Source of the DNA: Amoebophrya sp. A120
Taxonomy: Eukaryota; Protista; Dinoflagellata
Assembly: GCA_905178155.1 (NCBI GenBank)
Contig: CAJINV010000005.1
Span: forward strand, 8,471,591-8,535,590
Reading direction: 5' to 3'
DNA: 64,000 nucleotides
The notes under the pieces were generated by a model. The model was not told the DNA's origin and made no database searches. It saw only the letters and a list, made by a program, of their open reading frames with translations. Positions 13,618 through 56,200 of the stretch are shown piece by piece. The stretch's first letter is position 1. Each line of letters opens with the position of its first letter. Made by a program: the position numbers and the translations under genes.

Positions 13618-13625
13618 TGCCGCCG

Positions 13626-17634: not shown

Positions 17635-17668
17635 TTTGATTTTTTCTACAGCTGTAGAAAAAATCAAA
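17635..17668. repeat. Perfect 34-bp palindrome
   Basis: TTTGATTTTTTCTACAG|CTGTAGAAAAAATCAAA. Confidence 0.9.
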
Positions 17669-34555: not shown

Positions 34556-35458
34556 AAAGATATTTCTTTACGTTTACGATCTGTGGAACAGCTGCGAATT
34601 ATGCTGGTTTCAATTTTGACAATAAAGAACTTCTCTTTATTCAGTTTCAACAAATAGTTCACTGCCGTGATTTGACTTCCGTTTCCGTTTCAGAACTTGA
34701 ATCGCTGGATTATCTTGCAGGCACCGGCGGATGCTGGCTCTCTTCTAGCTGCACCGAAGCCGCCCAAGAGCGCTTGCTCGACACTGGTGGTGATTCTGAT
34801 TGTGAGGACCGATCTAAACATCAGTTCTTGAGAGAAGAAGTATTTCAATCAAATTTGAACTACAGGCGTAGAAGGGTAAGTTAGAAGTAGCTTCTTCCAC
34901 AGCAGCATCGTCGTGAAGATGCGTGTGTTCTTCGCGTTCGAACGCCCAACGAAGATTTTGTTGCTCTCTGTGGTGACACTGCCGCTTGTTTGTGCTCTTT
35001 TTTTTGTTCTGGCCCATTGTATCGTGACGGAGATCTTGTTGATCTTCACGGTCGCCCCCCGCAAGGATGATCAGGAGACGGAAACAATGGATCCTCCAAC
35101 CTACTTTCTACTTGTATGTAGAGAATGAAGACGAAAAGCAGGAGCATCTTCCTAGGTAGCTACTTAGTTGCTATCGCAGGTACTACAAACCATGTCCTTT
35201 ATTTGAAAAGGATTGGAATGATTTCATTTATGCATATGCACTAAAAAAGGCGGGTAGTATAGTTGCAAACGTCGATCCGGTTCTTGTTCCCATGTTGCCC
35301 GATCATCTCTTTTCCAACATAAATTTGATTTTCACGAAGAAAATTCTTCCCTTTTTCGAACAAACCACCATGTCTTGGAAGGACGCGTTTGGCCTGGCGC
35401 AGAAAGTGGTTAGTACGAGCCCCGACGTGTGCCAAGTAACGGTGAAAAACGCGACAGA

Positions 35459-35677
35459 TATGAGAGTGTACAACTCCCGCTCCCCCTCATTTGTCATGCA
35501 AAATTCCAAATCCACCCTCAGCCTGTTAGTAGTGTTTGCATGACAGATTCCGGAATCCAAAACAGCACTACAATCCTCTATGAATTTGCCATGCGAATAA
35601 AGCTGCATCTTTGCCAGCGCTTGTGTTGCTGTTCATGCAACACAAATGAGGGGGAGGAGGAGTTGTGCAGTCTCATA
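35459..35677. mobile_element. Introner family C
   Basis: DR acaga/acaga. Confidence 0.95.
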
Positions 35678-35729
35678 ACAGAAGAGTACCGTTTAAAAGT
35701 GAAGTCCTACAATCGGCACGACGCGGTTG

Positions 35730-35991
35730 TATCAATTGCAAATATGTCTGGGTCTGGAAGGCGGCAACTTGTCATGGTAAATCTGAAGCATGCAAAAATC
35801 TGTGTTGCCTGAGTGCCAAAAGCTGTCCACTTTTGACCAAGTTGGAAGGGAGTTTCTCATGCAGGATAGACATGATAGGGATCTCACAGAAACTGTCATG
35901 CTAGGTCCTGCACTCCAGACGACATGGATCATATAAAAATCTGCATGACAAGTTTACAATTTTCCAGACCAAGACATTTTTGCAGTGCATA
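35730..35991. mobile_element. Introner family A
   Basis: DR ggttg/ggttg. Confidence 0.95.
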
Positions 35992-36220
35992 GGTTGGGTT
36001 GTGGCACCACGCGGAGATGCAGTTAAAACCGGGGCAGTCTGACGGAAAAGGCAACACAGAGAGACGGAAAAGCCTGTCATGCTTGGCGGTGCATCACAGA
36101 GTACTATACTATTCACTGACTTGCATCACAACCTTCCAGACCACCCAGACGTATTTGCAATGCATATACCACAAGAAAATGCTGAAAGCGTCGATGAAGG
36201 GCTTGCTGTCACCAGAGAGA

Positions 36221-36375
36221 TATCCTGTGCAAAAGTATCGTACTCGTAGTAATTGTTCTTGCAGTCATGCATTACAAATTTTTTTCTTAATGTAAATCCA
36301 CATGACAAATTTTATTTCTCATGCTGAGGGAATTCGTCATGCATTTATACGAGTGCGATACTTGTGCAATGCATA
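36221..36375. mobile_element. Introner family B (same site as 31327)
   Basis: DR agaga/agaga. Confidence 0.93.
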
Positions 36376-36462
36376 AGAGAAGGCAGAACAAGGATGGAGA
36401 AAATGAGGAAATTAGTCTGGAAAACCAAGTCGCCGCACGGTCTCTGAACAACCCGGACACCA

Positions 36463-36559
36463 TATGCATTGCAAATATGTCCTCTGGGTCTGGAAGGTTG
36501 GAACTTGTAATGCTAGCTTTCCATACCTAGGAAACCTGTATTGCGTAAGCAACAAAAGT
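36463..36559. mobile_element. Truncated family A introner (left part only)
   Basis: Left TIR after cacca; the site is empty at 31561; right part lost at a deletion junction. Confidence 0.8.
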
Positions 36560-36859
36560 CGGATGCAGGATAGCAAGGACACTATTGGGCGGTCGAATGT
36601 GTACGACAACGCACCGGTCATGGACCAAGCCAGAGAAGATGATCGACAAGCGAGGAGTGCCGAGGAACAGGAAGACTCCTTCGAATTCTACAACGACGTG
36701 GATGCCACGTTTCAGCACGTACGCAAAGGGAGCAGCTCCTCTTCTAGCTCCTTCGCACGACAAGATACGGTCTCTTACCCCGCCAGCCAGTTTCTCGGGC
36801 GGAACAAGACGCAGTTTCACCCGGGACCCGACGCCCCGGTGTACGACCAACCCCACATG

Positions 36860-37124
36860 TATCAAATGTAAAAATGTCTGGGTCTGGACGAATGCAACTT
36901 GTCATGATAAATCTGAAGCATGAAAAAATCTGTGTTGCATGATTACCAAAAGTCGTCCAGTTTTGACCAAGTCGGGAGGGATTTTCTCATGCAGGATAGG
37001 CTGGCATGAGAGAGATCGCACAGAATCTGTCATGCTGTGTCCTGCATTCCAGACCTCATGGGTCATGGAAAATCTGCATGACAAGTTTACAATTTTCCAG
37101 ACCAAGACACTTTTGCAGTGCATA
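36860..37124. mobile_element. Chimeric family A introner
   Basis: Flanks acatg and ggttg come from two different genes. Confidence 0.88.
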
Positions 37125-37494
37125 GGTTGGGTTGTGGCACCACGCGGAGATGGAGTTGAAGCCGGGGCAGGAGTCTAGCCAATTCTCATAGGATTGCGCA
37201 TGACAGGTTCCGGAGCATCAAACCCCACTACAATCTGGCGAAATTTGTATTGCAGAAAGTGGAACGCTCTGCGAGTCTGTCATGCTCATCATGCAAGACA
37301 AATCTCAGATTCTATTGTATCGGATGTGATTTCCGCGACCGATGGGTTGTTTATGGCCATGAAGCAGTGTACCTCGATTCAGCTACAGGTTTGCGTGGAC
37401 CGGAATGCATTGTCGTATTATATATGATGACGATGGAACAAGACGAAAGAAGCCGGCTCGTTCCTGCGTCTGGCACAGCAACGCGCGGAACGAC

Positions 37495-37755
37495 TATCAA
37501 ATGGAAAAATGTCTGGGTCTGGAAGAATGCAACCTGTCACGCTAAATCTGAAGCATGCAAAAATCTGTGTTGCATGAGTGCCAAAAGCTGTCCACTTTCG
37601 ACCAAGTTGGGAGGGAGTTTCTCATGCAGGATAGGCATGAGAGAGACCTCACAGACTCTGTCATCCTAGGTCCCGCATTCCAGACCTCAAGGGTCATGGA
37701 AAATCTGCATGACAAGTTTACACTCTTCCAGACCCAGACACTTTTACAATCCATA
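37495..37755. mobile_element. Introner family A
   Basis: DR acgac/acgac. Confidence 0.95.
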
Positions 37756-39007
37756 ACGACAAAACGTACACCATTTCCGAGCGGTTTGAGGTGGATTCTG
37801 ATTCTTGGTGGCCATCTGCGCGTGCGGGCAAGGGTAGTTCGGCCGAGCTTGAAGTTGTTGGATCATGAGAAACATGTGATAATGAACGAACTCCTTGCGA
37901 AGAAAGCGATTTGATGTTTAGCTTAGCCCGCCTTCGTACAGAGAGAAATGTCCTGTTCTTGAAGCGCTGTTTTTCATCATAAAAATGAAAATTATGAACT
38001 CCCTAGTAAATAATCTGCAGCCGAAGGGAGAACGCGAAGAACACAACTTACATGACAAAGTTTTTTACCTCTTGGTGGAGGTCACAAGAGCATCATGTTG
38101 CTACCTGGATGAAACCGAATTCTGTGTCTGGAGTTCCTGTGCTAGGGTCGCAAGTTTACTGGACAGCATCATCATGATAATGTCGGTCAAACTTACTAGT
38201 CGATTTTCACGAAGCTGCGTAGAGGTAGAAATATACAAAAAAAGGTTCTCCACCACTATCATTCGGTTAATATGATCGTGGCGTGATCTTCCCATTCATA
38301 TCTGATTCGGTTTGGTTTTTCATCGAAGAAGAAATTTATGCAGCAGCAGATTCTCGGTGACGGTGTGGTCGCTCTTCGCTTACTTCGGTGTGAATGAAGA
38401 TGTCTGCTTACTGCTTTATTTGTCCTCTCGGTTATTTTTCATCCGGATGTTAGGTGGATGCTTCGGTCGACCACACGGTCTGTGTGGAAATTCCACGCAG
38501 CGCAGTGCTGCTGTTGCCGCATGTCGCTGCTACTCGGGTAGTCTGTTTGATGTCCTAAGGACCACCTCCAAGAAGGGACGGAAAATGCAGTGGCAAATAC
38601 TTATGCGGCGATTGAAGATGTGCCATGGCCCAGACGTTTTGTACATTCATTAAGCAGCAGCTTGCCATGGAAATCTATTTTTGTATTTCTTCCTCGATTA
38701 TGTAGGATTCATCATCTTCGTACATTTTTACAACTTTTTTCGCCCTCCATTGATTCGCTAAAGACGGGCCTTTGTTGATAGGATGTGATTGGCCCTGGCG
38801 GCCAGCGGCTGGTCCCTGAGTTACAACTCCCAGCACAAGATGATTTTAAAGCACGGACGAGGAAATTGTGCCGCGGGGCAGTACTACATCGGTAGTAGAA
38901 GACCATTACAACACGGAAGGATATTGAACGACAAATCCGAGGATGTTATGGAGATCTCCTCCCTGTTTGTCCCGCCACGGAAGATAATCGCGAGCAGGCG
39001 GGGTTTC

Positions 39008-42000
39008 ATGGTGCAGCTTTTGTCCTCGCGCATCATATTTGCCCTGCTTGTAGTAGTTCTTCCCACACTGCAAATCGGATGTGATGATTGGAAACAAGTA
39101 GCCAATGCTGTCACGATCCTGACCAGCAGGGCAGGAGAAGCCTCTACAACTTCCAGTAGATCATCATTCTCCGAGGAAAGCGAACAAGTCACCGCGTACG
39201 AACAGAAAAACACCAACGGGACTAAATCGCCGTTGATGTCGACGAAGAGTTTAATAAGCTCTTGGGAAAGCGATAGCGAAAGACAAAGTAGAGATGAACG
39301 TGAAGCTGCGACGTCACCTCTTGACAACATTAAAAGCAGCCTGCTCCAGCAGCAGGGGGCTGGGAACACCGCACTTCAACAAGCCGCGATTGAGCAAATC
39401 AGGACCGGCGTTGACCCGAACCTGTATGAATGGACGGAGAACGGCTACTGTTCCTGCCAAGGAAACTTCTGCCCGACGCGCTTCGCCAATGGTTTCGGCG
39501 GTCCGCTTGGTTTCGCGAATTGCCAACGCAATTGCACAGAAAACCCCGCATGTATGGGATTTGCCTACTCAGGGAACTGTGTGTACTCCGTCCAGCACAA
39601 ACTGGTCGACGGCGTCATCGGTCCAGACGGTGATGCGTTTTTAGCTGGCCCGCTTTTGTCTGATCCTATGAACCGTTTGCGGGGGGATGAGACAGGCGAC
39701 GACTGTATTGTGAGGAAAAATCCCCCCTCCCCATGTCGAGAAGGAGACTTGTGATGCTGATTTGTGACCACACAGCAGCTCTGTCTTGCATATGGGGCAA
39801 ATGGGATCCGTTTAGCGCATTTCACCGCCAATCTGTGATGCGGTTTTACATACTGCAAAGGTGTCTGCCATGCCTAAGTCCTAGCCTGCTGCATGCCCAA
39901 TCAGGCTCAGGAATTGCCTGTCCAAGCGCCTTCTGCACTACAGCGGTGATTTGTGTACAGAAATCCAGCAACAGAAATTTCCTTTTTTCTATGGGGTGGG
40001 AGCTTTTTTCACTTTGATAGACTGGACCAAAAGACTCCGCATGGCAACGTGGATAAGATACGGCTGCGTGCGAAAAATATTAAAGCCGGAAACTGCTTCA
40101 ACCTCTCGGAGCCCCCAAGCGGAGCAGGCCCTTGTAAGCAAGTACCGCTCGGTCGTCGCGTTTCAGGGCCTCTGCGGATGCGGGCCGCTCAGCGTATGCA
40201 AAACGAAACGCTTCGCGCACCTCGGCCTGCACTCGTCACAGCTAGACTGCGAGCGGCTATGCGAGGAAGACCGGAACTGTGCGGCTTATCAATTTGGCGT
40301 GGTGTCGGAAGCGCTTGGGCGGTACCACCCGCTATCCCGCGAAAAAACTGTTTCACTGTGATGGTTTTGCAAGATTCGCATGACAAGTTTGCTACACATG
40401 ACACAGAAAATTTGCCATGCGCTTTTCCCAAGGGAAAACACGCTTAAAAATCCATTGTGTTGCAGGTGTAGCAAGACAAACCCTTTGGTGTTTCGTTCTC
40501 TGCATCACAGGTTCACAGTGAAACAGTTTTTTCTTGCGATACCCGCATGGCCTGAACTACAACGCAAAAATTGCTGGAACGTGTCGCCTATCCTGTGCAA
40601 AAGTATCGCACTCGTATTGCAATCATGCGTTACAAATCTTTTTCTCAAGCTAATCAGCATTACAAATTTTATTTCTCATGCTGAGGAAATTTGTAATGCA
40701 TTTGTACGAGTAGGAGTACGATACTTTTGCAGTTCATATCGCCTGTATGAGTCCACGTGGAACAGCCAGACAAGTACCGTGAGTGCGCCCGACCGAGCCT
40801 TTGGGCCGTATGAGATTTACAACACTCCTACGAGAGTGGTGCACAACTCCTCCTCCCTCTCGTCAATTGTCATGCAAAATCCCAAATCTTCCAGTTGGTG
40901 CCTTGTGGCACTCTTTCCATGACAAATTTCAGAAGTCCAAAGAGTACTACACTCGGCGCGTGAAGTTGTCATGCACAAGCTCCACGCGTGGTGGTGGTTG
41001 TGGTGCTGTTCATGCTATACAAATGAGGAGGAGGGGGAGTCCGTTGTGCGCTCTCATAGCCCCAGCGGGGACCTGGTACTCAGATGTGAACGAGGACAAT
41101 TATCCTACGTAAAAACGTCCCCACACCATAGTCAAGATGGGAAATCTGCAAGACAAATCTCCAAGAAGTTCTGGGAGTTCTGCATGACAAGTTTCCATCT
41201 GCAGTGTAGTGCTGGTTAGCAAGGAAAGCCGCATGAGAAAGCCATTTACTCATCCTGTTTACAGCATTACAAATTCCAAAACACGACTGGGGATGCCTCT
41301 CAAGGAGATGTGCACTACAAATATTCCTGTCATTGCGCATTTGCATGACAACTCTGGGGTGGGGATGTTTTTCCTCAGAATAACAATGTTTTCATGTTTC
41401 CGAGAAAAACCGACGACGACGGGAAGGTGCTAGAAATCGACAACTTTTTATCCCACGAAAAAAGTGGTACAGTTACACATCTGCTGTAACTTCAGCATCA
41501 CAAGTTTCCTCTGCATGACAGAGAAAACTTGCAATGCAAAGATCATGAGGGAAAACAGGAAGGAAACGAGGCTCCAAAGCATTTCCTGCATGAGAAAGGT
41601 TGTCTGTGTTGCCGGTCTTGCATGACAATGTGTAACTGTAACACTTTTTTCTCCCCATACTTTTCTCCAGTGGAGGACTTTTGGTGGGTTAACGAATTCT
41701 GCATGAAGAAAATGCCTGCGGGTACTACAGGATATGCATTGCAAATATGTCTGGGTCCTCGTCTGGAAGAATGAAGCCTGTCATGCGAAATCTGGATCAC
41801 AAAAGAATCTGTGTTGCATGAACGGCAACAGTTTTGTTCGCGAATTTTTTTTATACGGAATAGGCATGAGGAAGGTCTGAAAATAAAATCTGTGAAGATG
41901 CTTGTGTGTGCATTACAGACCATAAGTCGTGTGGTCCGCGAGATGCATGACAAATCTTGCAACTTCTTTCCACACCCAGACACTTTTGCACTTGATACAG

Positions 42001-43519
42001 GAACAACAAACGCCAACAGCAACGGGAAGAACACTGGCGAGGGGTTCTTGGCCAACGCGAACGCAACAAATAAAACCATTACGGGAGCAGGTGTACTAGA
42101 TCAAGATGCTTTAACCTTTCTCGATTGCTGCTTCTACGGAACCATTGTCATTGCAGTCTTGCTGATATGCACTGCAAAAACATCGTACTTACTAGTATGA
42201 GTCGCATGACAGATTTCCTCAGCTTGAGAAATGAAATTTGTAATGGAGATTTAACTTGAGAAAGAAATTTGTAATGCAGGAATGCGATTAGTACGAGTGC
42301 GATACTTTTGCAGTGCATGACTGACACTCGCATTGGTCTTTGTGCTCTTCCTCTTCCGCAAGGAATTGCAACAGCTGCGAGGGTATGGATTGTAAAAATG
42401 TCTGGGTCTGGAAGAATGCAAGATTTGTGATGCAGCTTTTCCATGACCCATGAGGTCTGGAATGCAGGACCTAGCATGACAGATGCTGCGCGATCTCTCT
42501 CATCCTCATGCCTATCCTGCATGAGAAACTCCCTCCCGACTTGGTCAAAACTGGACGGCTTTTGGTAGTTATGCAACACAGATTTTTGCATGCTTGAGAT
42601 TTAGCATGACAAGTTGCAATCTTCCAGACCCAGACATTTTTACAATCCATAGAGGGACAGGCAAGCAGAAGCGACGAGGCCCGGCGGCGCAGCGGTGGCG
42701 CCACAGGAGCAGAGCCTACGCAAAAGATGCACAGCAGCACCCTCTTTACAACAAGAAGTACGAGCAGGTTGATGAAGTTGGAGGGAAGATGTTGAAAAGG
42801 ACCACGGCAGTCGTCCCGACGGCGCATCACCGGCAGGGAAGAAGAACTCCTTCTGCCCCCCGCGGGGGTGATCATGAAGATCATCATCCGCGTGCTGGAC
42901 GAGGAGGTACTGTCAGCACAGCGACGCTGAGAGATCGAAGGCCAGGGATGAACAAAGGGAGACATCAACCCGGTAGTTCCCCAACAACTGGTGCGCAGCA
43001 GGGGTCGCGACGTGGAGTAGACGTTGTAAACAAGAGCGCCAAGAAAATGAATACTGGTGCGACCACAACTACCTCGTCCCGGCCGGTAGACGCCTTGTCA
43101 CGAAAAATGGTTCTCAACGTACAACAAGAACCACCACCACGGCAGCTGTCGGGGGTTTCTGAGGAGGCAGGAAACACGACGCATGCCATGGAAACAACAG
43201 CTGCGACTACAGCGCATGAAGATCGAAACGTGTCCATCCCGATTATCGCGGTCGGAAATATGCATTGCAAAAGTATCGTAATATAGTAGAAATGGAAATC
43301 GCGTTACGAAAACGAACTGGCTCAGCATTACAAAGAAATGGAATCTGTCATGCTGATTTAAATTAGAAGGAAAATAAGAATTTGTCATGCATAGCTGCAA
43401 TTACTACGAGTGCGATACAACTTTTGCGGTTCATAGGAAGGAAAGAACAGCAACAACTGCAGGACGCGATGGATTTTGACAAAGCTATGCTGGCGGCGGA
43501 AATGAATGACAGGAGATGA
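39008..43519 (+). CDS. Type I membrane protein with two PAN/apple-like Cys domains (candidate adhesin), 11 exons
   Basis: Signal-like IIFALLVVVL; CQRNCTENPACMGFAY..NCVY and CERLCEEDRNCAAYQF...GTCRLY; TM FYGTIVIAVLLTLALVFVLFLF appears only after removing introner 42166; 10 introners, no canonical intron; alternative start 38948. Confidence 0.8.
39706..40019. mobile_element. Introner family F (TIR TATnnnnnGAAAAATCCCCCCTCC)
   Basis: DR gactg/gactg. Confidence 0.92.
40333..40541. mobile_element. Introner family D
   Basis: DR cccgc/cccgc. Confidence 0.95.
40589..40738. mobile_element. Introner family B
   Basis: DR tcgcc/tcgcc. Confidence 0.95.
40829..41058. mobile_element. Introner family C
   Basis: DR actcc/gcccc; left end TAC. 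Confidence 0.87.
41101..41382. mobile_element. Introner family E
   Basis: DR acaat/acaat; internally similar to 5606-5894. Confidence 0.95.
41449..41659. mobile_element. Introner group G
   Basis: DR ctttt/ctttt; TIR core GAAAAAAGTGnTACAGTTACACA. Confidence 0.92.
41733..41997. mobile_element. Introner family A
   Basis: DR cagga/cagga. Confidence 0.95.
42166..42319. mobile_element. Introner family B
   Basis: DR gctga/actga; right end ATG; splits the TM helix. Confidence 0.9.
42384..42651. mobile_element. Introner family A, reverse orientation
   Basis: DR gaggg/gaggg; interior is the reverse complement of the 37495 type. Confidence 0.95.
43259..43435. mobile_element. Introner family B
   Basis: DR ggaaa/ggaag. 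Confidence 0.9.
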
Positions 43520-44534
43520 AGCAGATGATACTACGTCCTCACACTATGTTCTCTGACGCAGATGAAACTACTTCCTAATCCTAAATGCTATAGCAGAGAC
43601 AACAGTGGATCGTGCTGTGGCATAGGAAGTAGATCAAAAGAGGACCACGGAGTTTACTTATTTCCAAAACCACGACCGTCGTTTCTTTTCGAAATTATTT
43701 TGTTTTCTGGTACTGGATACTGCGATCATTTGAAGACCACGGGATTCTTGTGTCGCGACATGATCACGACCACGTGGCTCCTGCGACGCAAGACAACACA
43801 AATTTTGAAAAGTACTTTGATTTTTTCGTTTCCAAATTTAATATTCCTGAACTACGATAGGACCACGAGCTCCTGCGCACTTGTTGGGACATTTTTGTCT
43901 CCGTTTTGATGTTCATTTGGATTTGGGATGAGGACCTGCAGCTGTTTCACAAGCAAGCAGACGACCGCACGGTTTTTGCGGTGCAAGAAAAACGATAAAT
44001 TCAAATGGCGAGAAAGAGAGCAGGGGTCTTCTCTACTCGGGCATCAGGGTGACGTTTTCTTTTTTTCGTGCATATAGTTGGATGAGAGAAGGTTTATTTT
44101 CACACACTGAGTAGAGCAGCGCAGGTGGAGGTGGCACCTGGAAAGGAGGGTCTTCGTAACTTGTGCGGAGTAGAGATCAAGCACAAATGCTGTCAGGCCT
44201 GAGCGATGGCATGATATTATGTGTGAAGATAATATTATCGGTTTCATCATCGGTCCTGCTCATCTCCAACTGCTGTCGTGACTGACTGCCGTAGAAGAGA
44301 CGCAGCTCCTTTGCTCGACAGATGTTCAAAATACAGAAAACTAACGTGGAAAGAAAGCTTGGATCATCATCATTCTCAGAACTTGCCTGCTGTGTGGTCT
44401 CTCGTTAGGTTACACACGACTGGCTTCTTATGCTCTTCAGACGCGGGCACAGCTGCTGGAACTGCGGGACAGAAGAACAAAAGAACCACAAGCTGCTGCG
44501 TCTACTACCGTAAAGTAAGATAATAAACCATCAG

Positions 44535-47500
44535 ATGGGTAGTTCTTCGCCGCCAGAGGGAACAACAAGTAGAAACACGGAGAAAAAAGTAGACACGCGA
44601 AGAACTACAAGTAGAGCACGACAGCACGACACCACGAGACGGCATATAGAGCCACGTAGCAGCAGCAGTTCTTCACCTTCGATCGAGAGTAGTGTTTTGA
44701 GCACTTCTTCTAGCAGCCTGAGTTCTTCTAGCAGGAGTAGGAAAAATCTTCGCGGCGCTGCAGGAGGACAGCAGCATCGAGCATCCCCTACTTCGCGGAT
44801 TGAGAAAACTGAAGGAACATCAGAAGTCGTACCCAAAATATCAAATCGAGCTGGTGGAACAACTGGGCCATCATCAACTCGTGCAGGAAATACTAAAAAC
44901 ATCCTGTCGCACCGCAGCCGCAGCCGCACTCGGAGTAGTCGGACCGTGGAGACAACTGCTAGAGCCGCTGCAGTTCCTCGGGTCGGCGGGGAGGACAAGA
45001 AGAGAAATACGTCGCCTGGTGCTTCGAAGGACGACGACGAAGACGAACGAGAAGAGGACGGTGACGCAATCATGTCGAGCTCCAGCAGCTCCGGAGCGGC
45101 GCCGACGGCGGGAAAAAAAACCACAAATGATGTTCCCAACACGGCCGGGCGTCGCACGCTGCAGGAATTGAAACAAGCGTCGCCGTATCAATTGCAAAAG
45201 TAGCGTACTTGTATAGATGCATTACAAATTTCCAGAGCATGAGAAATGAAATTTGTAATGCGGATGTAGCTTCAGAACAAGATTTGTGACGCATGCTTGC
45301 AATTACTACGAGTGCGATGCTTTTGCACAGGATACACTGCCGTTTTTTCACCCGGAGGCGGTAACCAGCTGGCGGAAAATTTCCAAGTCTTCCTCGTCGA
45401 AGAGCGGAGAGAATTCGATCGACTCCATCTACTCGATATCAACTGGTGAAATATGTATGGGTCTGGAAGGTTGCAAGACTTGTCATGCAGGTTTTCCATG
45501 AGGACGCATTAGGTCTGTCATACGTGCAGCTCTGGCATGACAGATTCTGCGCGAGGACCTGTATCACGCCTTCTCTGCATGACAAACTGCCTCTCAAGAA
45601 CTTGGTCAAATAAAGTAGGGAGCTTTTGGTATAATCACGCAACACAGATTTTTGCACTATCCAGAATCAGCATGACAAGTTCCAGCGCTCCAGACACCCA
45701 GGGAGATTTGCAAGGAATACTCGATCGGCGGGTCTCTGCTCCCAGACAGCGACGACAGCGACAAGTACTGCAAGAGCGCACTGCTATCCTGAGCAAAAGT
45801 ATCGTACTCGTAGTAATCGCAGACATGCATTACAAATCTTGCTCTCAAGGTAAATCCGCATTACAAATTTCATTTCTCATGCTGAGGAAATTTGTAATGC
45901 ATTCATACGAATACGATACTTTTGCAATGCATAACTGCGACGGTCCGACAAAACGGAGGTGGTGTTGAAGGGCAGGCACAAACTGCGGGGCTTCAAGGAT
46001 GAGGAAGAGCTCGAGGATTGGAAAGTGTCTATGGCTTTGATGCACTACGTAACAAACAACAACGGAAGCAGTGGTAGCAGTAGCAGCACGTCTACTTCAG
46101 CTGGTGGAGCCAAAACCTCTGGGGATAAGAGGATAGCGCAAAACAACCCGCTGCCAAACATCGCACAAATGTATCCTCGAATTTTTGCTTTGTGTGATGT
46201 AAGACTGAGGAGTTAAAGTGAATTTTCATGTGCAATAAATGCAAAAATAAAACTACAAAGAATGTTCAAACAAAAATCAGCTCCGAGCTTTTGGAAGTAT
46301 GGAGAGAAAAAAGTTTGTCACAGTCACTCACTTGCAGGTTTTGCATTACAAATTTTCTCAGCATCACAAACTTTCCTTGTATTGCAGAAACACTAGGGAG
46401 ATCCCTGATGAAGTTTGGCTGTGATGCATTTTTACGCATGACAGGCAATTTTGTATTGCAAGAATGCGCATGAGTGATCGTGACGAACTTTTTTTCTTTG
46501 ATAGGAAGACGAAAAGTGGTACTATGCGGTGATGGAAAAAGTCCACGGGCGCGACATGTTTGACTTCTTCATAGAAGATATCAGATGCAAATATGTTTGG
46601 GCGGTCTGAAACAAGAATGCAAGTTTGTGATGCTTGGTCGACAATACAGAAAAGTCTGTCATGTTTGTTGCGCTACAGAAGTGCCGCTGGTTTGTCATGC
46701 AAAAATGCCATTTGTCATGCGGTTACGCTAGATGTAGCCGCTCAGAAACTTGTCGTGCGCGGTTCTGCAATACAGTTTTATGATTCGGATATTAGCATGA
46801 CAACTTTCCAGACTCAGACATATTTGCAACGCATAGAAGAGAAGCTGGCCAAAACGGACGACCTGAACTTAATCCACAAGATCGCACTGAACTTCATCCG
46901 GCAAGTCTGCAATGCGCTGCACGCACTACACTCCAAGGGCATCGTGCACCGGGACCTGATATCAAGATGAAAAATCCCCCCTCCTCATTTATTACTAAAA
47001 CGGAGATTTGTGTAGCATGATTTGCTACCACATATCATGTTGTCATGCTGGAAGGCAAAAGGTGCGGACTGTAGTGCTGGCTGGCGTGGGAAAGCCTTGC
47101 GCCTTCAGCATGACAGGAGGCAACTGGAACTGGGAAACAGCATGAAAAATTGCCTGCAATTCAGGCCAATAGTGCGGCTCTGGGCCTTCTAGCAAAATAC
47201 AAGTCGACGTGTGTACGCAAATCCAGCATCACAAATGTCCTTTTCAATATGGGGAGGGGGGATTTTTCCCCTGAATATCTGAAGTTCGAGAACATCGTGG
47301 TGGTAGAGAACGGCGGAAGTTGTCTATGGGAAGAAAAAACTGTTTCGCCGTGAAGGACTTGTGATGCATAGATCGGTACACAGAACTATTTGTCTTGCTA
47401 CACCTGCAATGCCAGGACTCTTCAAAGGTGTTTTCCCTTTGGAAGCGCGCGTGGCAAATTTTCTGTGTCATGTGTAAGTATAGAAACTTGTGATGCAGAT

Positions 47501-49663
47501 CTTGCAAATAAAAATCATCACAGTGAAGCATTTTTTCCTGCGATATTGTCACAACGGCTCATCGTCTCCAAAAAGGGCCTCGCCGGTCTTTGACCCAGCA
47601 AGAATGGAGGTATGATTCATGGTCATGCGCAGGTCTGACAGCATCGCTGACTGTGTTTTTTTTTGTCATGCGCAAATAGCACCATTGGCATTGGATCATC
47701 GAATCTGTGATGCAGTAGACCCGGCTTCTTTTGACAGTCAAATTTTACCTATGAGAAAGCTCTCCACCTCTCAGGTAAAGCTAATCGACTTCGACACGGC
47801 GGAGATTTTTGACGCGATATGACCTGCGAATATGTCTGGGTCCCATGGAAGAGTTGTGCACTGTTTGTCATGCACGGCTAGGATGCCTCCCAAGCCTGTC
47901 ATGCACGTTACCCGAAAGTAGCCACATTTCTCTGTCATGTACGAACGCAGTGGGTGAAGATGCTGATAGAAGACAACACTGACTATTGTAATCAAAAAAT
48001 TTCGCATGCTTGGCTGTCAACGTAGGCATAGGCGTTCGCATGATTCGCCGAAATACACCAGCCTCCACAAGTTTCCACACAATCCAGGGATATTTGCAGT
48101 GGATACGCGAACCGCATATACTACCATGTTCTCGGGTATGGAAGTGTCAGGATCGAAATCGGCAAAATCAAAAAATTTGTGATGCATAAAATGTAGGGCA
48201 CTGGAGGCCTGCATTGGGGAGCAGGCAAATGAGACCGATTGCAAGCCTGTTTAGGGGTATGCAATGTGCTGCCAGAGTAGCACGACAGGAGCAGTCTTCT
48301 TTGCCCAAACAACATGGCAGACTGGATTTGAGTGCTCCCGAAATTTGTCATGCGCCACTTACAAATTGAGGCTCCAACTGGTATCAATTTTTTGCATCAC
48401 AAATTTTTCGATTTTGTCAATTTCGATTCTGACACTTCCATATCAGGACGGATCAGTACATCGCACCTGAAGTGTACGCCGGAATGGTGACGCCCGCTTG
48501 CGTAGGCTTTGCGAAAATCATATCGTACGAGTAAGTAGTATTACTGCATTACAAATTTGGATTATTTCTTGCCCAGCATGAGCAATGCAAATGCAATTTG
48601 TAATGCGGTGGATTCAGCTCAAAAAAGAGAATGCAATGCACAAATGCAATTGCTTTTCCTACGAGTGCGATATTACTTTTGCAGAGGACATTGTGACATG
48701 TGGGCCGTGGGAGTGATGCTGTACACGCTTTTCACCGGAACTTTGCCCTATGCATTGCAAATATGTAGTCTGGGTCTGGAAACTTGTGTTGCTGATTCTC
48801 GCATTGCAGAGCGGTCGCTTGTACAGTATCACAGCATCAGAAGTTATTTTGCCAGGCTTCTTGCAGCAGGTCTCAATTCCTAAAACGCATGACAAACTAT
48901 ACCATATCCAGCACGACAAAAAATTAGAATTACCCAACCGCATTTTATGCATCACAAATCCTTGTTGTCCTTCACATCCCGCATGACAGATCGATATTTG
49001 CAATCCATATGCCCTTTCACAACGCGATATTTGACGACGAGCCGGGGGAGAATTGGGTCGGAAATCCGGCCATGGAAAAGATCCGCAGGAGGCTGAAACT
49101 GGTCAAGATTGACTGGTCGCACCCTGTATCAAATGCAAAAATGTCTGGGTCTGGAAGGTTGGAACTTGTGATGCTAACTCTGGACTGTAAAAACATCTGT
49201 ATTGCATGACCAGCAAGAGGAGTCCAGTTTGTGCTACGCCGGGAAGGAATTTGTCATGCGGAGTAGGCATCAGGAAGGAAGATCTGTGATGCTAGGTAGT
49301 GCATTACAGGATCCTGGGTCATGCAAAATATGCATGACAAACCCGGCAACATTCCGGACCCAGACACTTTTGCATTTGATACCCTGTGTGGAGCGAAAAA
49401 AGACCGTCGAGTCAATCCATCTATCCTGTGCAAAAGTAATATTTTGCATATAGTCGTAGTCACTGCGGAAACCAGATTTGTCATGCAACTTATTGCACCG
49501 AACAAACTACTTCTACGACTGCGATAATGTTTTTGCACTGCATACCATCGTGCAGCCAGAGTCTTTGGTCAAGGATTTTTGCCGCCGGTGCTTCGCGTTT
49601 GAACCGAGCCAGCGCTTGACTGTAGTGGAGGCTCTGGCGCACCCGTGGCTAAGCGGAAAATAG
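44535..49663 (+). CDS. Ser/Thr protein kinase, CAMK/CDPK-like but atypical (DFD, no GxGxxG), 16 exons
   Basis: After splicing: VVLK, PNIAQISELLEDEKWYYAVME, HSKGIVHRDLKFENIV, VKLIDFD, VLGTDQYIAPE, CDMWAVGV, RLTVVEALAHPWL. 13 introners; GT-AG introns 46171-46280 and 47610-47774. Confidence 0.93.
45186..45334. mobile_element. Introner family B, opposite orientation to 45785
   Basis: DR cgccg/cactg. Confidence 0.9.
45437..45719. mobile_element. Introner family A, reverse orientation
   Basis: DR ctcga/ctcga. Confidence 0.92.
45785..45933. mobile_element. Introner family B
   Basis: DR actgc/actgc. Confidence 0.95.
46298..46503. mobile_element. Introner group G
   Basis: DR ggaag/ggaag; TIR core GAAAAAAGTTnGTCAC. 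Confidence 0.92.
46579..46835. mobile_element. Introner family A
   Basis: DR gaaga/gaaga. Confidence 0.93.
46960..47277. mobile_element. Introner family F
   Basis: DR cctga/tctga; splits HRDL|K. Confidence 0.96.
47325..47545. mobile_element. Introner family D, opposite orientation to 40333
   Basis: DR ttgtc/ttgtc. Confidence 0.93.
47818..48105. mobile_element. Introner family A (degenerate)
   Basis: DR cgcga/cgcga. Confidence 0.9.
48137..48442. mobile_element. Introner family H (~50-bp TIR TATGGAAGTGTCAGnATCGAAAT)
   Basis: DR tcggg/tcagg; splits VLG|TDQY. Confidence 0.95.
48503..48690. mobile_element. Introner family B, decayed ends (TAG...ACA)
   Basis: DR ttgcg/ttgtg; splits AC|DMW. Confidence 0.88.
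48749..49009. mobile_element. Introner family A
   Basis: DR tgccc/tgccc. Confidence 0.93.
49127..49381. mobile_element. Introner family A
   Basis: DR ccctg/ccctg. Confidence 0.95.
49422..49544. mobile_element. Introner family B (short)
   Basis: DR ccatc/ccatc. Confidence 0.9.
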
Positions 49664-50318
49664 AGCGCCGGTTTGTGAAAAGTGCCGGACAGGATCGATT
49701 GTAGTCGTGCCGCCGGACGAGAGACGTGTAACTACATGCGTGATTTTTAGTAGTAAGTACTAGAACGGAAGTAGCTGTCAAGAAGTTACAGCCAGCACGC
49801 GAGGAAAAAACGAAATGTCAATTGATGATATAGCCTTAGACCACCATCCAGTCTCGACTTGTTGTAGCTGTTATTCAGTCGGTTACTTACTTTATTCTTT
49901 CAACAGCAAAAGCAAAAGCAAAACCATGAAAATCTAATGAGGTGAAATACAACAGCATCAGCAAATACACATAAGACAGGCAAAGCGCAAAAGTTTTATC
50001 CCGCTACGGCCACCATGACGTGAAAGAAAAAAGCGTGAGAAGTATACATGATCGTCAACATCGCGTGAAGGTCAGACAGGGAGCGCAAAAGCACCTTCTA
50101 AATTTGTAAATATTGGCCAGCTGCTTCTCTATTCAGAGCTGAGATAAAAGTTCAACACGTTCACCAAGTAGAATGCTGCTGCGAGAAAATAAAGAAATTT
50201 TCTTCTGTAGAACCAGTGCTAGAATAAATTATTAGGGAGTTGTAAATCACATGACGTATAATTCGGGCTTGTAGTTTCATTTCTAGTGAGGGGCAAGTGA
50301 AGTATAAAAGTTTATCGA

Positions 50319-50367
50319 AAACAAGCATTTAGTTGGAAAATCTGATTTTCCAACTAAATGCTTGTTT
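50319..50367. repeat. Perfect inverted repeat, 24-bp arms, 1-nt spacer
   Basis: AAACAAGCATTTAGTTGGAAAATC-T-GATTTTCCAACTAAATGCTTGTTT. Confidence 0.9.
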
Positions 50368-50557
50368 GGCTTGGATCGGTGGATCGGTGGGCTGCAGCTG
50401 CCTGCAAAAGAAGTCTATGCTGGTGCAGTGTCAATCCAGATGAGTCAGTTTCAAAAATAAATCGAGTAAGTAATTTTCATCTCCGGTGGCGCATTGTACA
50501 ACTTATCACGAGTGCATAGAATTTGAATTAGAGAAGCTCCAGTCTCGTCCTGACCCC

Positions 50558-50876
50558 AGGTTTCAATCAATGCACAGAGCAGTAGGTGGCTAGCCAAGGT
50601 GGAGCCGAGTAAAAGACACAAGGCACCATTGAAAAAGACCACAATTGCGAAATACGCCGAAGGGGGGATAGCCGTAAATTATCATCCCTTGTAGAGAACA
50701 AGGCTGAAGACAGGAGGCAAAAAAATAATCTGAAGTACAGCCCGATGCGCTGATTCAGTGTCGGTGCCTCTTGTGGTAGTCGAATTTATTTATCAAGTTA
50801 CACCATCAATAGATGATCGGTCATTCGATCTTTCACCAAATTTTACTAAAAGTGACGACCTAATAAAAAGCCATAA
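50558..50876. repeat. Dispersed intergenic repeat, copy 1
   Basis: Aligns with 58410-58757 and partly with 59135-59230. Confidence 0.85.
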
Positions 50877-53294
50877 TAGGCCGCGCCCGCTGCGTTTCAG
50901 CATGCTCTCCCAGTTCTGTTTTTTTGAAAGTTGCTACATTTTGAATTCAGTTTGAATTCAGTTCGATATCGACTTCGATAAGGAGTTTTCGCATGAGATT
51001 TCGAATAGGAGGTGAAGAGGAGATAAGATAGAATCGATCGCAGTTTCTTATCGCGGTTACCTGCGTTAGAATTGTGTTCGATTGGCTAGAAAAATAAAAG
51101 AAAAAAACTTAACAAGATACTAACCTCGAGGGGCACATGAAGGGATGTGGTGTGGCTGCTTCTTGGCGCATTGATCAAACATCACCCCGGATGCCCCTGA
51201 GGGCATCAATTTTCCTCTCATTAATTAAAAACAGCTTCCGCCCTTTTTTTTATTTGGTGCTGCATGATAGACGGATGCGAAAAGCAAAAGAAAAGACTCA
51301 GCAGGGGCTCAAATCCATAACTAGCGCGAGGCCGAGGAGATCAACGACATCGAGGGCGCATGATTCCGATTTCTTTTTTCAAGAAGAAGAAAGGGGGGAA
51401 ATTGAGCATCAACTGAATAGGCATGATAATATGTATGCGGGGCCCCTTTTTTGCTCTTGCTTCTTGGCTACAAGGTCTTGTAGGGACTGTTTCTCTCGGA
51501 ATTTGCTTCTGTTCCCTCCTTTGAGTTGTATTTTTTGAGAAGTCCATACTAGATGTGTCTGTGCAATAGGAGCCTCTTCTTAGCTCCTAGTAGCCAGCGG
51601 AGTCATGCAGTTCACTACTGGCAAACCCGCACCGAACTTCCTCAAATGAGATTTTTGACTTGTAGGCAGTAAGCAAAAAGCTCCAAAAGTTATAGAGACG
51701 ACGAAGCGCATACGAGTTGCCCATATGTGATTCTTGTATGACTCAAAATCCCTCCCAATTAATAACTGGAAAGCTTTATTGTAAAAAAGTATAACAAGAC
51801 AAAGAAACAAAAGCTGAGTCCAGTAAAGCTTTCCTGTATCCGTCTCTCTATAACAGCGCCAAAGAGCAGCGCTGCCCGTCCAGATGCACGCAGCATCTAC
51901 AGCTCTCCATCTAGAGTCCACAAAATTGCAAAGATCCCTGTGATCATTTTTTTCCGCCCTTTAGGTTAGATAGGAGGTGTCAGGGGGCGAGGTAGTGATA
52001 TAGGCTCGCACACCTGAGGACGTAGGCTCCCTTACTAGCTGTATGTGGGTCATTCCCGACGGTGGAGCGTGGTTTTATATGAGAACCAGGTAAGGCTTCA
52101 CTGCCGAAACGACGAAGAGACGTTGGCCCAGCGTAGCACTGTCAAATGGCGACCGAACCTATGCACAGCTAAGGTTTTCTAGCCACGGCAGTGTTGCTCA
52201 CTCCGTACCGGGTCCCGTGCGAGCAACCGTAGCCAGCGAAGTGGAGAGGGAAACCACTGCTCGGACGTTACCGGAGAAATTTGGTAGCGATTGGATCCCG
52301 GGAGCGCACCCACAGAACTTGTCCATGAACCTGTGAAGAACACGACGGCAGCGATCCCCGATCATTTTCATCAAAACTCCGATCAGAAGTTGCTATTGTG
52401 ATCTTTATAAGTTTATGGCTAAGATTATGTTTTCAAAAAAAAATAAAAAAATAAAAAGCCATGACCAGAACTTTTTTTGAAGAACCCTTCTTGATCTTGG
52501 CAAGAAACATCTCTTCGTTTCCCGTCCAAAGAAAAGTTCGCATAGCACGCGAGAGCAAACTGACAGAAAAATAAGTGGATCTGCATCGGGATGGTCCTGT
52601 GGACGATTGGTCACCTCCAATAAATCTGACCAATGTATGCAAACCCAAAGATCGGTATGTACGCTTCTCGATGCCAACCCGAGCATCGGTTAATAAAGTA
52701 TTTGCAAAATCTTCAAGATCGATCTTCCAAAATTTCGGGAGAAAAATCGTAAGGTAAGAGAAGATCAGCTCGACTCGGTTTCGGTAGATCGACAGCGATC
52801 ATTGAAAATCCGCCTTCCAGAAGGATCCTACTAGTAGTAGTAAGACCCGTCCCTTGTGGTCGACTGCTAAGTTGTGCCGCTTATGATCTAGTATGACTGT
52901 GAATTTGTGCACGATGAAGTCGAAGATTATTTTGGTGATCTGGTAAAATGTAAGACCACCCGAAATTTAAATTTGAATTTCCAAGCAACAAAAAAAAAAC
53001 AGCGTCGCATCTTGTATACTTCACAGAATCAGAAATAGAAGTACACCTACAACCTCCATAACAATCTTCATCACGAATTTTGACGACACCAAATTTTACG
53101 AAAGTAACCCAACTTTTCTTAAAGTGCTACAGTGCACAGGCATAACCTAAACGAACCTACCAACAAGCTTTCAGATTTTACTACAAAGGCAGAAGTTCTA
53201 CTTCCTTTAGATCCATCGAAAAACTACAGAAACCGGAGCATTTTTTCCTTTTCGTATTCAGAACATACATAACAAGCACCAAGATCTTCGAAAG

Positions 53295-56200
53295 ATGAAC
53301 AAGATGTTGTCTTCGTGTGCTGTTTTATTCTTTTCCCTAGCGGGCGGCCATCAAGTCGCAGTCCTGGCCGCCGAGTCGCCGACTTCCCCAGGAGGTGGTC
53401 CTCGTGGTCCCGCGCTGAGTATTCTTAATTTTCACGGCCAAGAGATGCAGAGGATTCCGTTTGCAGAATTATGCATTGCAAATATGTCTGGGTCTGGAAA
53501 CTTGTGATGTAAGTCTGTGAATCGTGGGCCCACTACAATATGCAGCCAAGCATGACAAGCTTTTGCATGTGCCATGTGCTTCGTTTTCCGCATGGCAAAC
53601 TGCGTTTTTGCATGACCACAGGGTGTCCGTCTCAACGATACGATACGATGACAGACAGGAGGCCCCGTTCCTGCTTACGCATCGCAGATCCAAGAGTCAT
53701 GCCAGACAAGCATGACAAGCCCTGCATTCTTCCAGACCCAGGCATTGTTGCAATGCATAAGATTGGTGGTACAACAACCGGACAGTTGCGGACCTTTTCA
53801 ACAAGGTGGAGACCGGCGAATGGGAGCCAGCGTCGGCGCACGAGGAGGATGCGGTGTTTGATTGTGGAAGTACCGCGCAGCTCCTCGCGGTCGATATTGT
53901 CCCCGTTCGCTTTGATAATACCTTATCACAAGAAAAAAATGTAGTCACAGGCAGTTACACACGACCCTACGGATGCAAGACCAGCAAGACGTCATGCAGG
54001 AAATGCGTGGCAGTCTCATTTCATGCGTGTTTCTTTCCCTTATAGTCTGCGCACCACAACAAGTTTTCTTTGCCATGCAGGACAACATCTTTGTGATGCT
54101 GAAACTACAACATCAAATGTGTAATAACTGTGGAGCCTTTTTTTTCCGGTGATATCCATGCGTCTTAGGAAAGTACCAACTGACAGATCCGCAGGTACTT
54201 GGGGGGTTTCCACAAGTACGGAAGGCTGCGCTTTTCTCTTCTTCGTCCACGCCCCCAGAGAGCAAAGATATACGGCTCCGATATGTCCGTGCTACGCGCC
54301 AGAAGCTAGCTTTTGCCACCCTGCTCAGAAAAATGTACCGCTTACTCACGGTATCCAGGAACGCCCCGCTACTTGAGTCTTCCGGTCCCACAGCGGAGAA
54401 GGCGGACCTGAAAAAGTTGCTGGGCGACTTCTGGTATGCTCTGCAAAAGTTGTGTCTGACACTCGTACGAATCGCACGCGTGCATGAAAACATCGGAGCT
54501 ACTTTCTTTTTACCTAATTCTGCATCACAATAAATTTTCATCTTCTTCTTGGAGAAATCATTTGCCAAATGCGATTTCACTACCAGTACGAAATAGTACT
54601 TTTGCAATGCATATCTGGCACGAGCATACGCACGCACCAGAAGTTGTAGAGGTGCAAGATGGGCAGCCTGGTCGTTTAGAGCACCAGCTTCGAGCCTTTT
54701 TGATGGGCCCCGGTCGGAGCACAAGATCGCCGCATGATCCGGCGCCCGCAGCGTATTTACTACCCGACGACGCGGAACTTCGTTGGTTTCTGAATCAGAT
54801 TATGAAATCCAAATGTGTCTGGGTCCTCTGGAACATGATGGCAACTTGTCATGCCAAATTTGAATCATGCAAAAATCTGTGTTGTATGATTGCCAACAGC
54901 TGCCCAGACTTTTGACCAAGTTGAGGGGAGGTTTGTTTCTCATGCAGGATTTTTGGCATTTGAGGTTGATAAAGTAGATCTCCCTCTTCACAGAATCCAA
55001 TCTGTCGTGGTCCTGAGTCCTGCATTTCAGACCTCATGAGTCATGTAAAACCTGCATGACCACGACGCCAATCTTTCCAGATCGGCAGATCGATATTTGC
55101 AATGCATACAGGTGGACCGTGCTCTCCTGTCGGCTGCAGCGGAGCCTCAAGAACAGGCGGAAGCGGAGTCGAAGATTGTCCTGCGTTATGGTTCTCCCGG
55201 ACAAGGAGTGAAGGTGTACTCAGCAGGGGAAATTAATCCTGGACACGTTAGAGTTAGCATTGAGGTGGGCGGCCCCCGCCCCGGCCCGGCCGCCGCAGAA
55301 AATCCTAGGCCCCGCCAGGGACGCGGCAGAGGACGTGGCAGGGGCCGCGGCCGGCGGGACAACGAGGTGGACCCGCAGCCGAAGGCGGAGCCGGTCATTT
55401 CCAACTATCCCAGAGAAAAAAGCAGGCAGGGCATATAATTTGTATATATGCAAAAACAATAAATACGCAAAAATAAAAATCTGTCACGGGCGGCCTTGTA
55501 GCATGCTGTTTAGGATCATTCGCAATACAGATTTTTTTGTGTATTTATTCTTGCATAATTATCTGCCTGCTTTTTGTTTTTTCTGTGGGATAATAGTACC
55601 AACCAAACTGTGCATATACCTCCAGAAAGCATGCCGGCGAAGATTTTGGCGAAAATTTCTCGGGAACAAGAACAACGGCGCGACCCACGAATGCGTGGAC
55701 GACACCTCAACTTATCAATAGGAAAAATCCCTCCTGCTCCCCATATCGAAATAAAGGCATGCTTCCGAGATGAATTTGTGTTGCTGATTTGAGGCCACAA
55801 ATCACATTTGTTTTGCAAGAAGACACGGGCACCAGAAGCTTCCGCCCCATTAACATTATGGAAGCGAGCTGCCATGCTGTTGGGCCTAAAAGTGGCCAGC
55901 CGCTTGCCGTGCTGCACAACTAGACCCAGACGGTCCTTCTACCTAGCTTGGGGAAGATCTGGCCGCAAGAGTGCCTCTCTGCAATACAAACCTGATTTCT
56001 TGTGTACACAAATTGAGCGTGAGATGAAAATCCGTTGTGATATGGGGAGGGGGGATTTTTCCATACGATACCACTCTCCTTTTCCTCCCGCGTGGCTCCG
56101 CACCTGGGATTATGGATTGTAAAAATGTCTGGGTCTGGAAGAATGCATGTTTGTCATGCTTGTCTGGTATGACTCTTAAATCTGTCATGCACGTTACCCA

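Follow-up and report, generated by a model that had tools for sequence, protein, structure and literature searches.

Spliceosomal introns are polar, having a donor, a branch point and an acceptor. This locus in Amoebophrya sp. A120 raises the question of whether one and the same introner can be removed from transcripts in either orientation, as an earlier note on this DNA had claimed. More than 60% of Amoebophrya introns lack GT-AG ends, and how they are removed is an open question in the available text of PMC7789003. Were the elements reversible, their splicing signal would have to survive inversion.

Inverted-repeat introners in the window

The window, meaning the whole 64-kb stretch of DNA analysed, contains 64 inverted-repeat elements that run TAT…ATA, with target duplications (TSDs) of 5 bp. 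They are short (123-358 nt) and non-coding, and none is long enough to encode a transposase. Most counts below use 278 copies, made up of window copies and 217 copies from a related assembly, of which 238 were assigned to families. Position 3 of the terminal inverted repeat (TIR) is T in 267/277 copies at the 5' end and 275/277 at the 3' end, and positions 11-13 are A in 248-262 of 277, while positions 1-2 were preset by the detector used to find the loci and are invariant by construction. The base profile of the 5' end equals that of the 3' end. A perfect 5-nt TSD is present in 200 of the 278 copies, and because no TSD base is fixed the flanks were never brought along from a donor. Empty paralogous sites match the filled site once the element and 5 nt are taken out, which proves the 5-bp duplication.

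These elements are very likely the published A120-type introners (PMC7789003, seen in excerpt). They share an inverted repeat in which TAT is followed by seven less strict positions and then three or more As, a direct repeat of 3-5 nt at the exon/intron boundary (here the 5-nt TSD), and repeated spliced introns with non-canonical ends, seen in the family membership above and at 16/16 joints. They also have the features of a MITE, or non-autonomous TIR DNA transposon, namely TIRs, a TSD of constant length, a short non-coding body and either orientation. A search of Rfam over positions 35000-50000 returned no match at gathering score, and a viral-contig search returned none.

Copies of one family lie in both orientations

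The copies at 42384, 45437, 45186 and 47325 had been called inverted relative to their sisters, and BLASTN matches on the opposite strand bear this out. The element at 42384-42651 matches 37495-37755 in reverse complement at 86.6% over 269 nt and 35730-35991 at 82.6% over 264 nt, and 45437-45719 is reversed relative to the same two copies at about 72%. Similarly, 45186-45334 is reversed relative to 45785-45933 (86.8% over 144 nt) and 47325-47545 relative to 40333-40541 (76.6% over 222 nt). The host genes and elements are given below with their joints in the transcript-like contigs X5-X8, which come from one study, are presumed to be RNA and give neither efficiency nor strand; in the kinase region 15 of 235 joints were listed, so counts are at least those stated and a joint missing there carries no weight.

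38840-43519, + strand: host gene for an unknown protein that is Cys-rich in one part and contains a hydrophobic stretch; 806 open codons; RNA joints for each of its 10 introners
44535-49663, + strand: Ser/Thr protein kinase host gene, start codon uncertain; 13 introners and 2 GT-AG introns (46171-46280, 47610-47774)
35730-35991, + strand: family A1 introner, forward; TSD GGTTG; no RNA joint among those listed
37495-37755, + strand: family A1 introner, forward; TSD ACGAC; joint 37488>37755 (266) in X5, X6, X7
42384-42651, - strand: family A1 introner, reversed relative to its host; TSD GAGGG on both sides; predicted intron 42383-42655 on +; joint 42378>42652 (273 = 268+5) in X8
45437-45719, - strand: family A1 introner, reversed, kinase gene; TSD CTCGA; joint 45429>45718 (288) in X5
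49127-49381, + strand: family A1 introner, forward, in the kinase gene with reversed 45437; probably removed, from the 626-nt length match in X5 contig 15
45186-45334, - strand: family B introner, reversed; diverged TSD CGCCG/CACTG; joint 45184>45339 (154), 1 ambiguous base, in X5
45785-45933, + strand: family B introner, forward, in the same gene as 45186; TSD ACTGC; joint 45779>45934 (154) in X5
40589-40738, + strand: family B introner, forward; joint 40583>40739 in X5, X8
42166-42319, - strand: family B introner, reversed, in the same gene as 40589; joint 42161>42321 in X8
43259-43435, - strand: B-like introner, reversed; diverged TSD GGAAA/GGAAG; joint 43253>43436, 4 ambiguous bases, in X5 and X8
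40829-41058, no strand assigned: family D introner; diverged TSD; joint 40826>41062 in X5 and in X8 (depth 154)
40333-40541, + strand: family C introner, forward; joint 40326>40541 in X5, X8
47325-47545, - strand: family C introner, reversed, kinase gene; TSD TTGTC; probably removed, from the frame test and, on the RNA side, solely the exact 626-nt length match

After trimming 35 nt from each end, the best interior match of each copy has no opposite-strand hit, and the orientation edges within families contain 0 inconsistencies. The terminal repeats therefore do not account for the orientation calls. All hosts were said to be on the + strand, and the longer open frame is indeed on + at 62/62 junctions tested, elements 36860 and 55406 having been excluded from the 64 for want of a target duplication. 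Weak open frames were obtained at 55713, 56111 and 56428.

A count of orientation per family, which had been proposed as a check, was made across the window and related assembly: family B is balanced at 46:43, and family A1 shows a mild bias at 28:11 (p=0.009; about 0.1 after allowing for 11 families). Nearest sequence neighbours are opposite-oriented in 127 cases and same-oriented in 111, and no alignment column differs by orientation apart from 2 of 149 in family B at p<0.02. The host-5' half has diverged less than its host-3' counterpart (3646 vs 3928, p=0.002), which indicates that the symmetry of the element is incomplete.

Both orientations are removed from transcripts

At 16/16 element joints seen in the transcript-like contigs, the element and 5 nt are missing, in both orientations of A1 and of B, as the earlier note had expected. 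Reversed copies with joints include 42384, 45437 and 45186, and their forward sisters include 37495 and 45785. One further joint, 39734>39948 (1/12 in the second joint set), was not counted, as 24 other letters lie between and it does not represent element removal. The raw RNA runs X9 and X10 gave 35 and 3 partial reads, uninformative on the locus.

The claim that the joins restore the reading frame is confirmed in the kinase gene, where 601 codons are open only if all 13 elements leave with 5 nt each. Removing 0, 3, 4 or 6 extra nt, or retaining an element, shortened the frame every time. In the kinase transcript-like contig one GT-AG intron is also gone, and the 626-nt middle equals the predicted sum of exons. 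Pfam Pkinase matches were found on + for 2/4 kinase exons tested, with scores under the curated cut-off. Since an insertion into an exon would be erased from the mRNA whichever way it faces, such elements could spread fast.

A non-polar element with apparently polar cuts

The joints and frames point to polar removal of a non-polar element, in which 1 nt upstream and 4 nt downstream of it leave too, as set by the direction of transcription. It is quite probable that a single register applies everywhere, exon N1-N4 / N5-TAT…ATA-N1-N4 / N5 exon, set by transcription direction. Unequal fixed spacers of 1+4 fit 5/5 informative junctions, five being the whole sample. Diverged TSDs permit a cut after TSD base 4 or 5 at 45186, after base 3-5 at 40829 and at 0-4 at 43259; a cut of at least 3 is needed at 48137 for the kinase GT motif to survive, and one of at most 4 at L047_3365 to avoid TGA. 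The three RNA junctions that narrow the register most have one contig each, and two of them are reversed B-type copies, none being a forward B copy with a diverged TSD. In the stop-codon test 2 of the 3 first cases were wrong-frame calls, and a stricter run left one. Codon usage, a weak test of the register, gave 49 vs 34, and synonymous mismatches at N4 (11/16 vs 18/49, p=0.04) provide a hint only. Together, reversibility and the 1+4 register make this unexplained splicing testable.

Splice signals, pairing and an internal motif

Removal does not need GT-AG. At the inferred register 80 of the 278 copies start with GT, 20 end with AG and 4 do both, so that the GT/GC donor and AG acceptor of a U2-type intron do not describe this set. 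Nor do the copies show a branch-point consensus, as just 9/128 A1/B copies have YTRAY at a distance of 12-60 nt from the 3' end, although the lineage's own consensus may differ.

Recognition had been attributed to symmetric features, a TIR hairpin among them. The equal end profiles support this idea; the search for selection on pairing and the polar cuts do not. TIR positions 9-14 are predicted to be paired in 54/61 sense and 53/61 inverted copies, and the hairpin z is -8.1 for the 42384 copy and -5.5 for the 37495 copy. The G·U to A·C comparison gave no sign of selection on hairpin pairing (197 vs 169, p=0.16), stems showed no G·U excess (476 G·U-forming vs 483 A·C-forming; p=0.049 for B stems alone), and at TIR positions 4-7 pairing was no better than with shuffled partners in the covariation test. 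Sense folds are slightly stabler than inverted ones in 39/61 (p=0.02), which we do not count as evidence.

The internal motif GCATNACA/TGTNATGC occurs at 11.2 per kb in the elements, balanced between strands (75 vs 81), and 0 times in 16.6 kb of exon. It also occurs at 7.0 per kb in 11 GT-AG introns, a set chosen by eye in which some boundaries are off and only two introns are RNA-supported. A motif common to elements and canonical introns favours one machinery. An orthologous copy in L129 differs at 12/150 sites, vs 14/51 fourfold sites (p=0.001), and this slower change suggests that the element, the one compared, is constrained after insertion.

Insertion, excision and alternative explanations

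There is good support for insertion in the form of double-stranded DNA. The TIRs, the 5-bp duplication and the random orientation argue for double-stranded DNA integration rather than reverse splicing, and the claim of a DNA intermediate therefore stands. Our working model, which we hold somewhat more readily than not, is that the TAT…ATA elements are double-stranded-DNA transposons in either orientation, excised by machinery that places its cuts by distance from their symmetric ends. Insertion regardless of host strand would, we think with considerable confidence, be the work of a transposase of the cut-and-paste or integrase type. Each end reads TAT-N4-(TGC)AAA inward, so that reversal would restore both the 5' and 3' signals and the long terminal stem, and the strand-balanced motif GCATNACA/TGTNATGC may help recognition in both orientations. 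The chances seem even that a modified, U1-less spliceosome is the catalyst, with an A of the terminal ATA as a possible branch point. U1 is reported undetected, with U2, U4 and U6 present and, in A120, U5 as well (PMC7789003, in excerpt).

It is possible, but we consider it rather doubtful, that the transposon origin and the register are right and that a separate non-spliceosomal nuclease and ligase, of the kind proposed for the nonconventional introns of Euglena, makes its cuts at set distances from where the terminal stem begins. Such an enzyme would suit elements that follow no dinucleotide rule and lack a branch-point consensus, with long stems predicted on both strands (54 and 53 of 61) and with an N1-TAT…ATA-N4 arrangement that parallels the tested Euglena code N3-CAG…CTG-N5 (PMC12501133, in excerpt). 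It would not explain why the internal motif is also found in GT-AG introns, and it sits poorly with the failure to detect selection for RNA pairing and with the tunicate Fritillaria, whose TIR-derived non-canonical introns require the U2 spliceosome (10.1101/2025.08.15.670264, in excerpt). Equally tentative is a strand-symmetric, position-measuring code N-TAT…ATA-NNNN with no donor, acceptor or branch consensus, read by a non-spliceosomal or deeply rebuilt machine. If true, any TIR element with such ends would be a seamless intron in either landing direction, the code would have converged on that of Euglena, and insertions would be erased exactly because the spacers (1+4 here, 3+5 in Euglena) sum to the target duplication.

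Spread through RNA seems improbable, be it by reverse transcription of an element transcript and integration of the double-stranded cDNA or by reverse splicing into one or the other DNA strand of a transcribed gene. What moves (TAT…ATA) differs from the excised unit (1+element+4 nt), the flanks are always host duplications, and orientation does not follow sequence kinship; reverse splicing in its plain form inserts in sense only and leaves no duplication. On the other side, 5-bp duplications are also typical of integrases, and the elements are restricted strongly to exons, absent from three long stretches of the window, where they avoid long intergenic DNA, and never nested. Gene bias has been counted as a signature of an RNA route (PMC9860276), and the available text of PMC12130899 tells of a family in A120 that has TIRs and is homologous to LTR retrotransposons. 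It is very hard to believe that the elements are cut from DNA before transcription, like the TA-bounded internal eliminated sequences of ciliates. They are TA-bounded, symmetric and orientation-blind, the host is an alveolate and the RNA nature of X5-X8 is presumed, but the kept bases track transcription direction (upstream 1-4, downstream 5), an unspliced piece stands beside a spliced one at 40829 (X8 record 24, depth 8.8), and the DNA-like run X3 has depth 0 at six kinase joints among those listed, where exon cover is thin.

Comparison with known systems

The elements themselves are already known, as are either-orientation introners in general. What appears to be new is reversible removal in Amoebophrya with no need for GT-AG, the polar 1+4 register and the shared internal motif. 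The A120 introners of PMC7789003, as far as its available text goes, are alike in the TAT inverted-repeat motif set out above, the hairpin, the short direct repeats (5 bp in the legend of Fig. S19), the lack of fixed splice dinucleotides and the co-oriented genes. They differ in that their splice sites are called variable, where the single 1+4 register gives exact cut sites. That text holds no statement that we found on either-orientation splicing, the 1+4 register or a shared internal motif, 'orientation' there meaning gene order, and a literature search on Amoebophrya found no statement of either-orientation introners.

The elements of Polarella glacialis (classes 2, 3, 6, 7, 8, 10) and the introners of Aureococcus are also transposon-like, with TSDs and introns in either orientation with some bias (10.1101/2020.10.14.339549). 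They recruit GT/GC/GA and AG sites from the element or TSD (Roy et al., 10.1101/2020.10.14.339549), so their register moves with sequence, and they demonstrate that spliceosomal polarity is no bar to either-orientation introners. In contrast, window-type elements have GT and AG in only 4/278 copies and a register seemingly fixed by position. Fritillaria borealis also has TIR-derived non-GT/AG introns, for which the U2 spliceosome was shown to be necessary (10.1101/2025.08.15.670264, in excerpt), whereas the catalyst in Amoebophrya is only proposed; its preferred termini are AG-AC/AT (PMC11282704), and the elements here have no terminal preference.

Nonconventional introns of Euglena offer a further parallel, and repeated families in both orientations are not reported in the available portions of PMC12501133 and PMC3935182. 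According to the same portions, their terminal triplets are self-complementary, their ends pair, the spacers are of fixed but unequal length, direct repeats are present and a MITE origin has been proposed. Terminal stems are predicted here too, but with no G·U excess or covariation. Our elements lack CAG at +4 and CTG at -8, and the two systems differ in using CAG/CTG with 3+5 nt spacers in Euglena and TAT/ATA with 1+4 nt in Amoebophrya, an unrelated lineage.

Reversed introners and their host genes

By scanning and hand curation we found 64 elements of 123-358 nt in the window, which start with TAT and end with ATA, a few of them degenerate, and nearly all bordered by direct repeats of 5 nt. 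After end trimming the best interior match of each was confined to one strand, so orientation is unambiguous. The four reversals named in the earlier note (elements are called by their start positions) were borne out, with identities of about 72% to 86.8%:

42384, reverse-complement match to 37495 (86.6% over 269 nt)
45437, reversed relative to its family A1 relatives (about 72%)
45186, reverse-complement match to 45785 (86.8% over 144)
47325, reverse-complement match to 40333 (76.6% over 222)

That all hosts lie on the + strand and that the joins restore frame also held: removal opened long frames on that strand at 62 of the 62 junctions tested, three frames near 55.7-56.7 kb being weak (36860 and 55406 lack a target duplication and were excluded). 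In the Ser/Thr kinase gene, the 601-codon frame requires the loss of exactly 5 nt with each of 13 elements. This one gene contains both family A1 (45437 reversed, 49127 forward) and family B (45186, 45785) both ways, making the either-orientation claim independent of strand. It also has a 17-nt micro-exon (46281-46297), flanked by a GT-AG intron and an introner.

A scan of metagenome contigs for family B end motifs gave at least 142 loci, and the matches listed all came from one assembly. One of these loci is orthologous to window 30430-31015 at 91%, placing the assembly in a related strain. Our detector, which recovered 52 of the 64 window elements and none extra, found at least 265 elements in 81 long loci among the matches listed; 218 had a clear host strand, 47 were dropped and one duplicate was removed afterwards. 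Combining these with 60 window copies, strong bias was absent, in keeping with the idea that the same introner works either way (family B 46:43, A2 8:14, other families balanced or small), but A1 leaned 28:11 (p=0.009 before and about 0.1 after correction for 11 families). The nearest relative was oppositely oriented for 127 copies and had the same orientation for 111, again over the window and the matches listed.

Removal and cut register

Joints were read from X5-X8, assembled contig sets of a single study, whose origin from RNA is a guess and which show joints rather than splicing efficiency or strand. X5 contig 15 omits 45186, 45437, 45785, 46579 and 46960, with no extra letters in the pieces listed, and likewise the GT-AG intron at 46171. 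Its middle part, at 626 nt, is exactly as long as the predicted exons together if every remaining element has gone, among them reversed 47325 and forward 49127. The 37495 joint is present in X5, X6 and X7, and further joints were seen for 39706, 40333, 40589, 40829, 41101, 41449, 41733, 42166, 42384 (in X8) and 43259. The loss was the element plus 5 nt at 16 of 16 element joints among those listed; for 40829 one unspliced piece has a depth of 8.8 against 154 for the spliced joint. The elements at 48503-48690 and 42166-42319 have damaged terminal triplets (TAG…ACA; TAT…ATG) yet are removed all the same, so that TAT/ATA is no absolute requirement.

At sites with unequal duplication copies, one can tell from the contigs which base is retained. 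The cut is permitted after base 4-5 at 45186, 3-5 at 40829 and 0-4 at 43259. Element 48137 must retain upstream base 3, giving GTDQYIAPE, which we take to be a kinase motif, and not RTDQ; in L047_3365, from the related assembly, keeping upstream base 5 would put a TGA into the long frame, so this base must go. The sole register fitting all five junctions is exon N1-N4 / N5-TAT…ATA-N1-N4 / N5, and we infer from them that it holds everywhere. Removal is polar. At this register GT starts 80 of 278 introns, AG ends 20 and both occur in 4, close to chance.

Symmetric and polar features

The earlier note had attributed recognition to symmetric features, a terminal hairpin and a motif. Symmetry itself was upheld: the 5' and 3' ends agree in base profile at all but one of 22 positions (the exception being position 3, p=0.037), long terminal stems are predicted on folding either strand, and the motif GCATNACA/TGTNATGC occurs 75 and 81 times by strand, often spaced 31-33 nt. 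Selection on the hairpin found no support, and the polarity of removal departs from the claim. Element stems show no excess of G·U over A·C, and positions 4-7 of the terminal repeat are hypervariable and unpaired between ends (family B, 106 of 356 paired against 106.6 shuffled); both count against the hairpin as a selected feature. This block takes a few recurring forms, and in all elements is a bubble separating TAT/ATA from the long stem. In A1 and A2, pairing at positions 8-14 exceeds the shuffled level, an excess that kinship can account for.

The motif reaches 11.2 per kb in elements and 7.0 in GT-AG introns (11, chosen by eye), whereas 16.6 kb of exon contain none and the remaining sequence has 0.3 per kb. 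Candidate GT-AG introns carrying it lie at 5411-5559, 9601-9774, 27516-27625, 47610-47774 and others, where it is either a general intron mark or a relic of decayed introners. An orthologous element changed at 12 of 150 sites compared with 14 of 51 fourfold sites (p=0.001), and this greater conservation implies that the interior is important once the element has inserted. Divergence is slightly lower in the half towards the host 5' end than in the other (p=0.002), which points to polar constraint. A branch consensus was not found, 9 of 128 copies matching.

Insertion and the mechanism of removal

A partial duplicate within the window lacks elements 32924 and 33139, each empty site equalling the filled site minus the element and 5 nt. 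Target duplications were perfect in 200 of 278 cases (window and matches listed), without any fixed base. The moving unit is thus TAT…ATA and not the excised RNA, and the donor flank is never carried. Together with random orientation, the empty sites and host duplications favour the DNA intermediate put forward earlier, and argue for what would be integration of double-stranded DNA. Full elements are absent from 9533-20501, 49545-53469 and 56716-64000 while exons are densely hit, none is nested in another in the window, and cut phase is skewed 113:65:88 (window and matches listed), all of which count against a plain blind transposon.

Element fragments lie near 58370-58410 and 59417-59523. The duplicate, 35992-37170, is a rearranged partial copy of the 31160-33530 gene; beside the empty sites it holds half-elements (36047-36166 and 36463-36570), and its element 36860 shares a right flank with 35730, which suggests recombination between copies or mis-assembly. 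Elsewhere there are tandem arrays of 10-nt and 24-nt units and of GC-rich units of about 90 nt (13108-14056 and 15365-17445) and, in 17950-25300, several tandem gene duplicates (20352-20989 against 23235-23859, and the genes near 21834 and 24700), some of which look chimeric.

The account we lean towards, at slightly better than even, is that DNA would insert regardless of orientation, after which a machinery would read the identical ends and measure 1 and 4 nt from them. The remover is likely a U1-less spliceosome, favoured because the motif is common to GT-AG introns, because U2, U4 and U6 are retained in Amoebophrya according to PMC7789003, and because Fritillaria (10.1101/2025.08.15.670264) is a precedent for spliceosomal reading. 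A separate nuclease and ligase, as proposed for Euglena, could instead remove the elements, a less probable course. Spread mediated by RNA is unlikely, the moving unit being other than the excised RNA, and excision from DNA is highly improbable.

Comparison with known systems

The features of the window elements match those of the A120 introners described in the text of PMC7789003. In the accessible parts of the open-access literature compared, including PMC12130899 with supplements, PMC11282704, PMC3935182, PMC8469720 and PMC12621601, we found no statement on reversibility or a fixed register in Amoebophrya. The reversal is a real observation. PMC9860276 describes a method permitting matches in opposite orientation, and 10.1101/2020.10.14.339549 reports introns created in either orientation in Polarella and Aureococcus, with ordinary splice dinucleotides. 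For Euglena, the code given in PMC12501133 is N3-CAG…CTG-N5.
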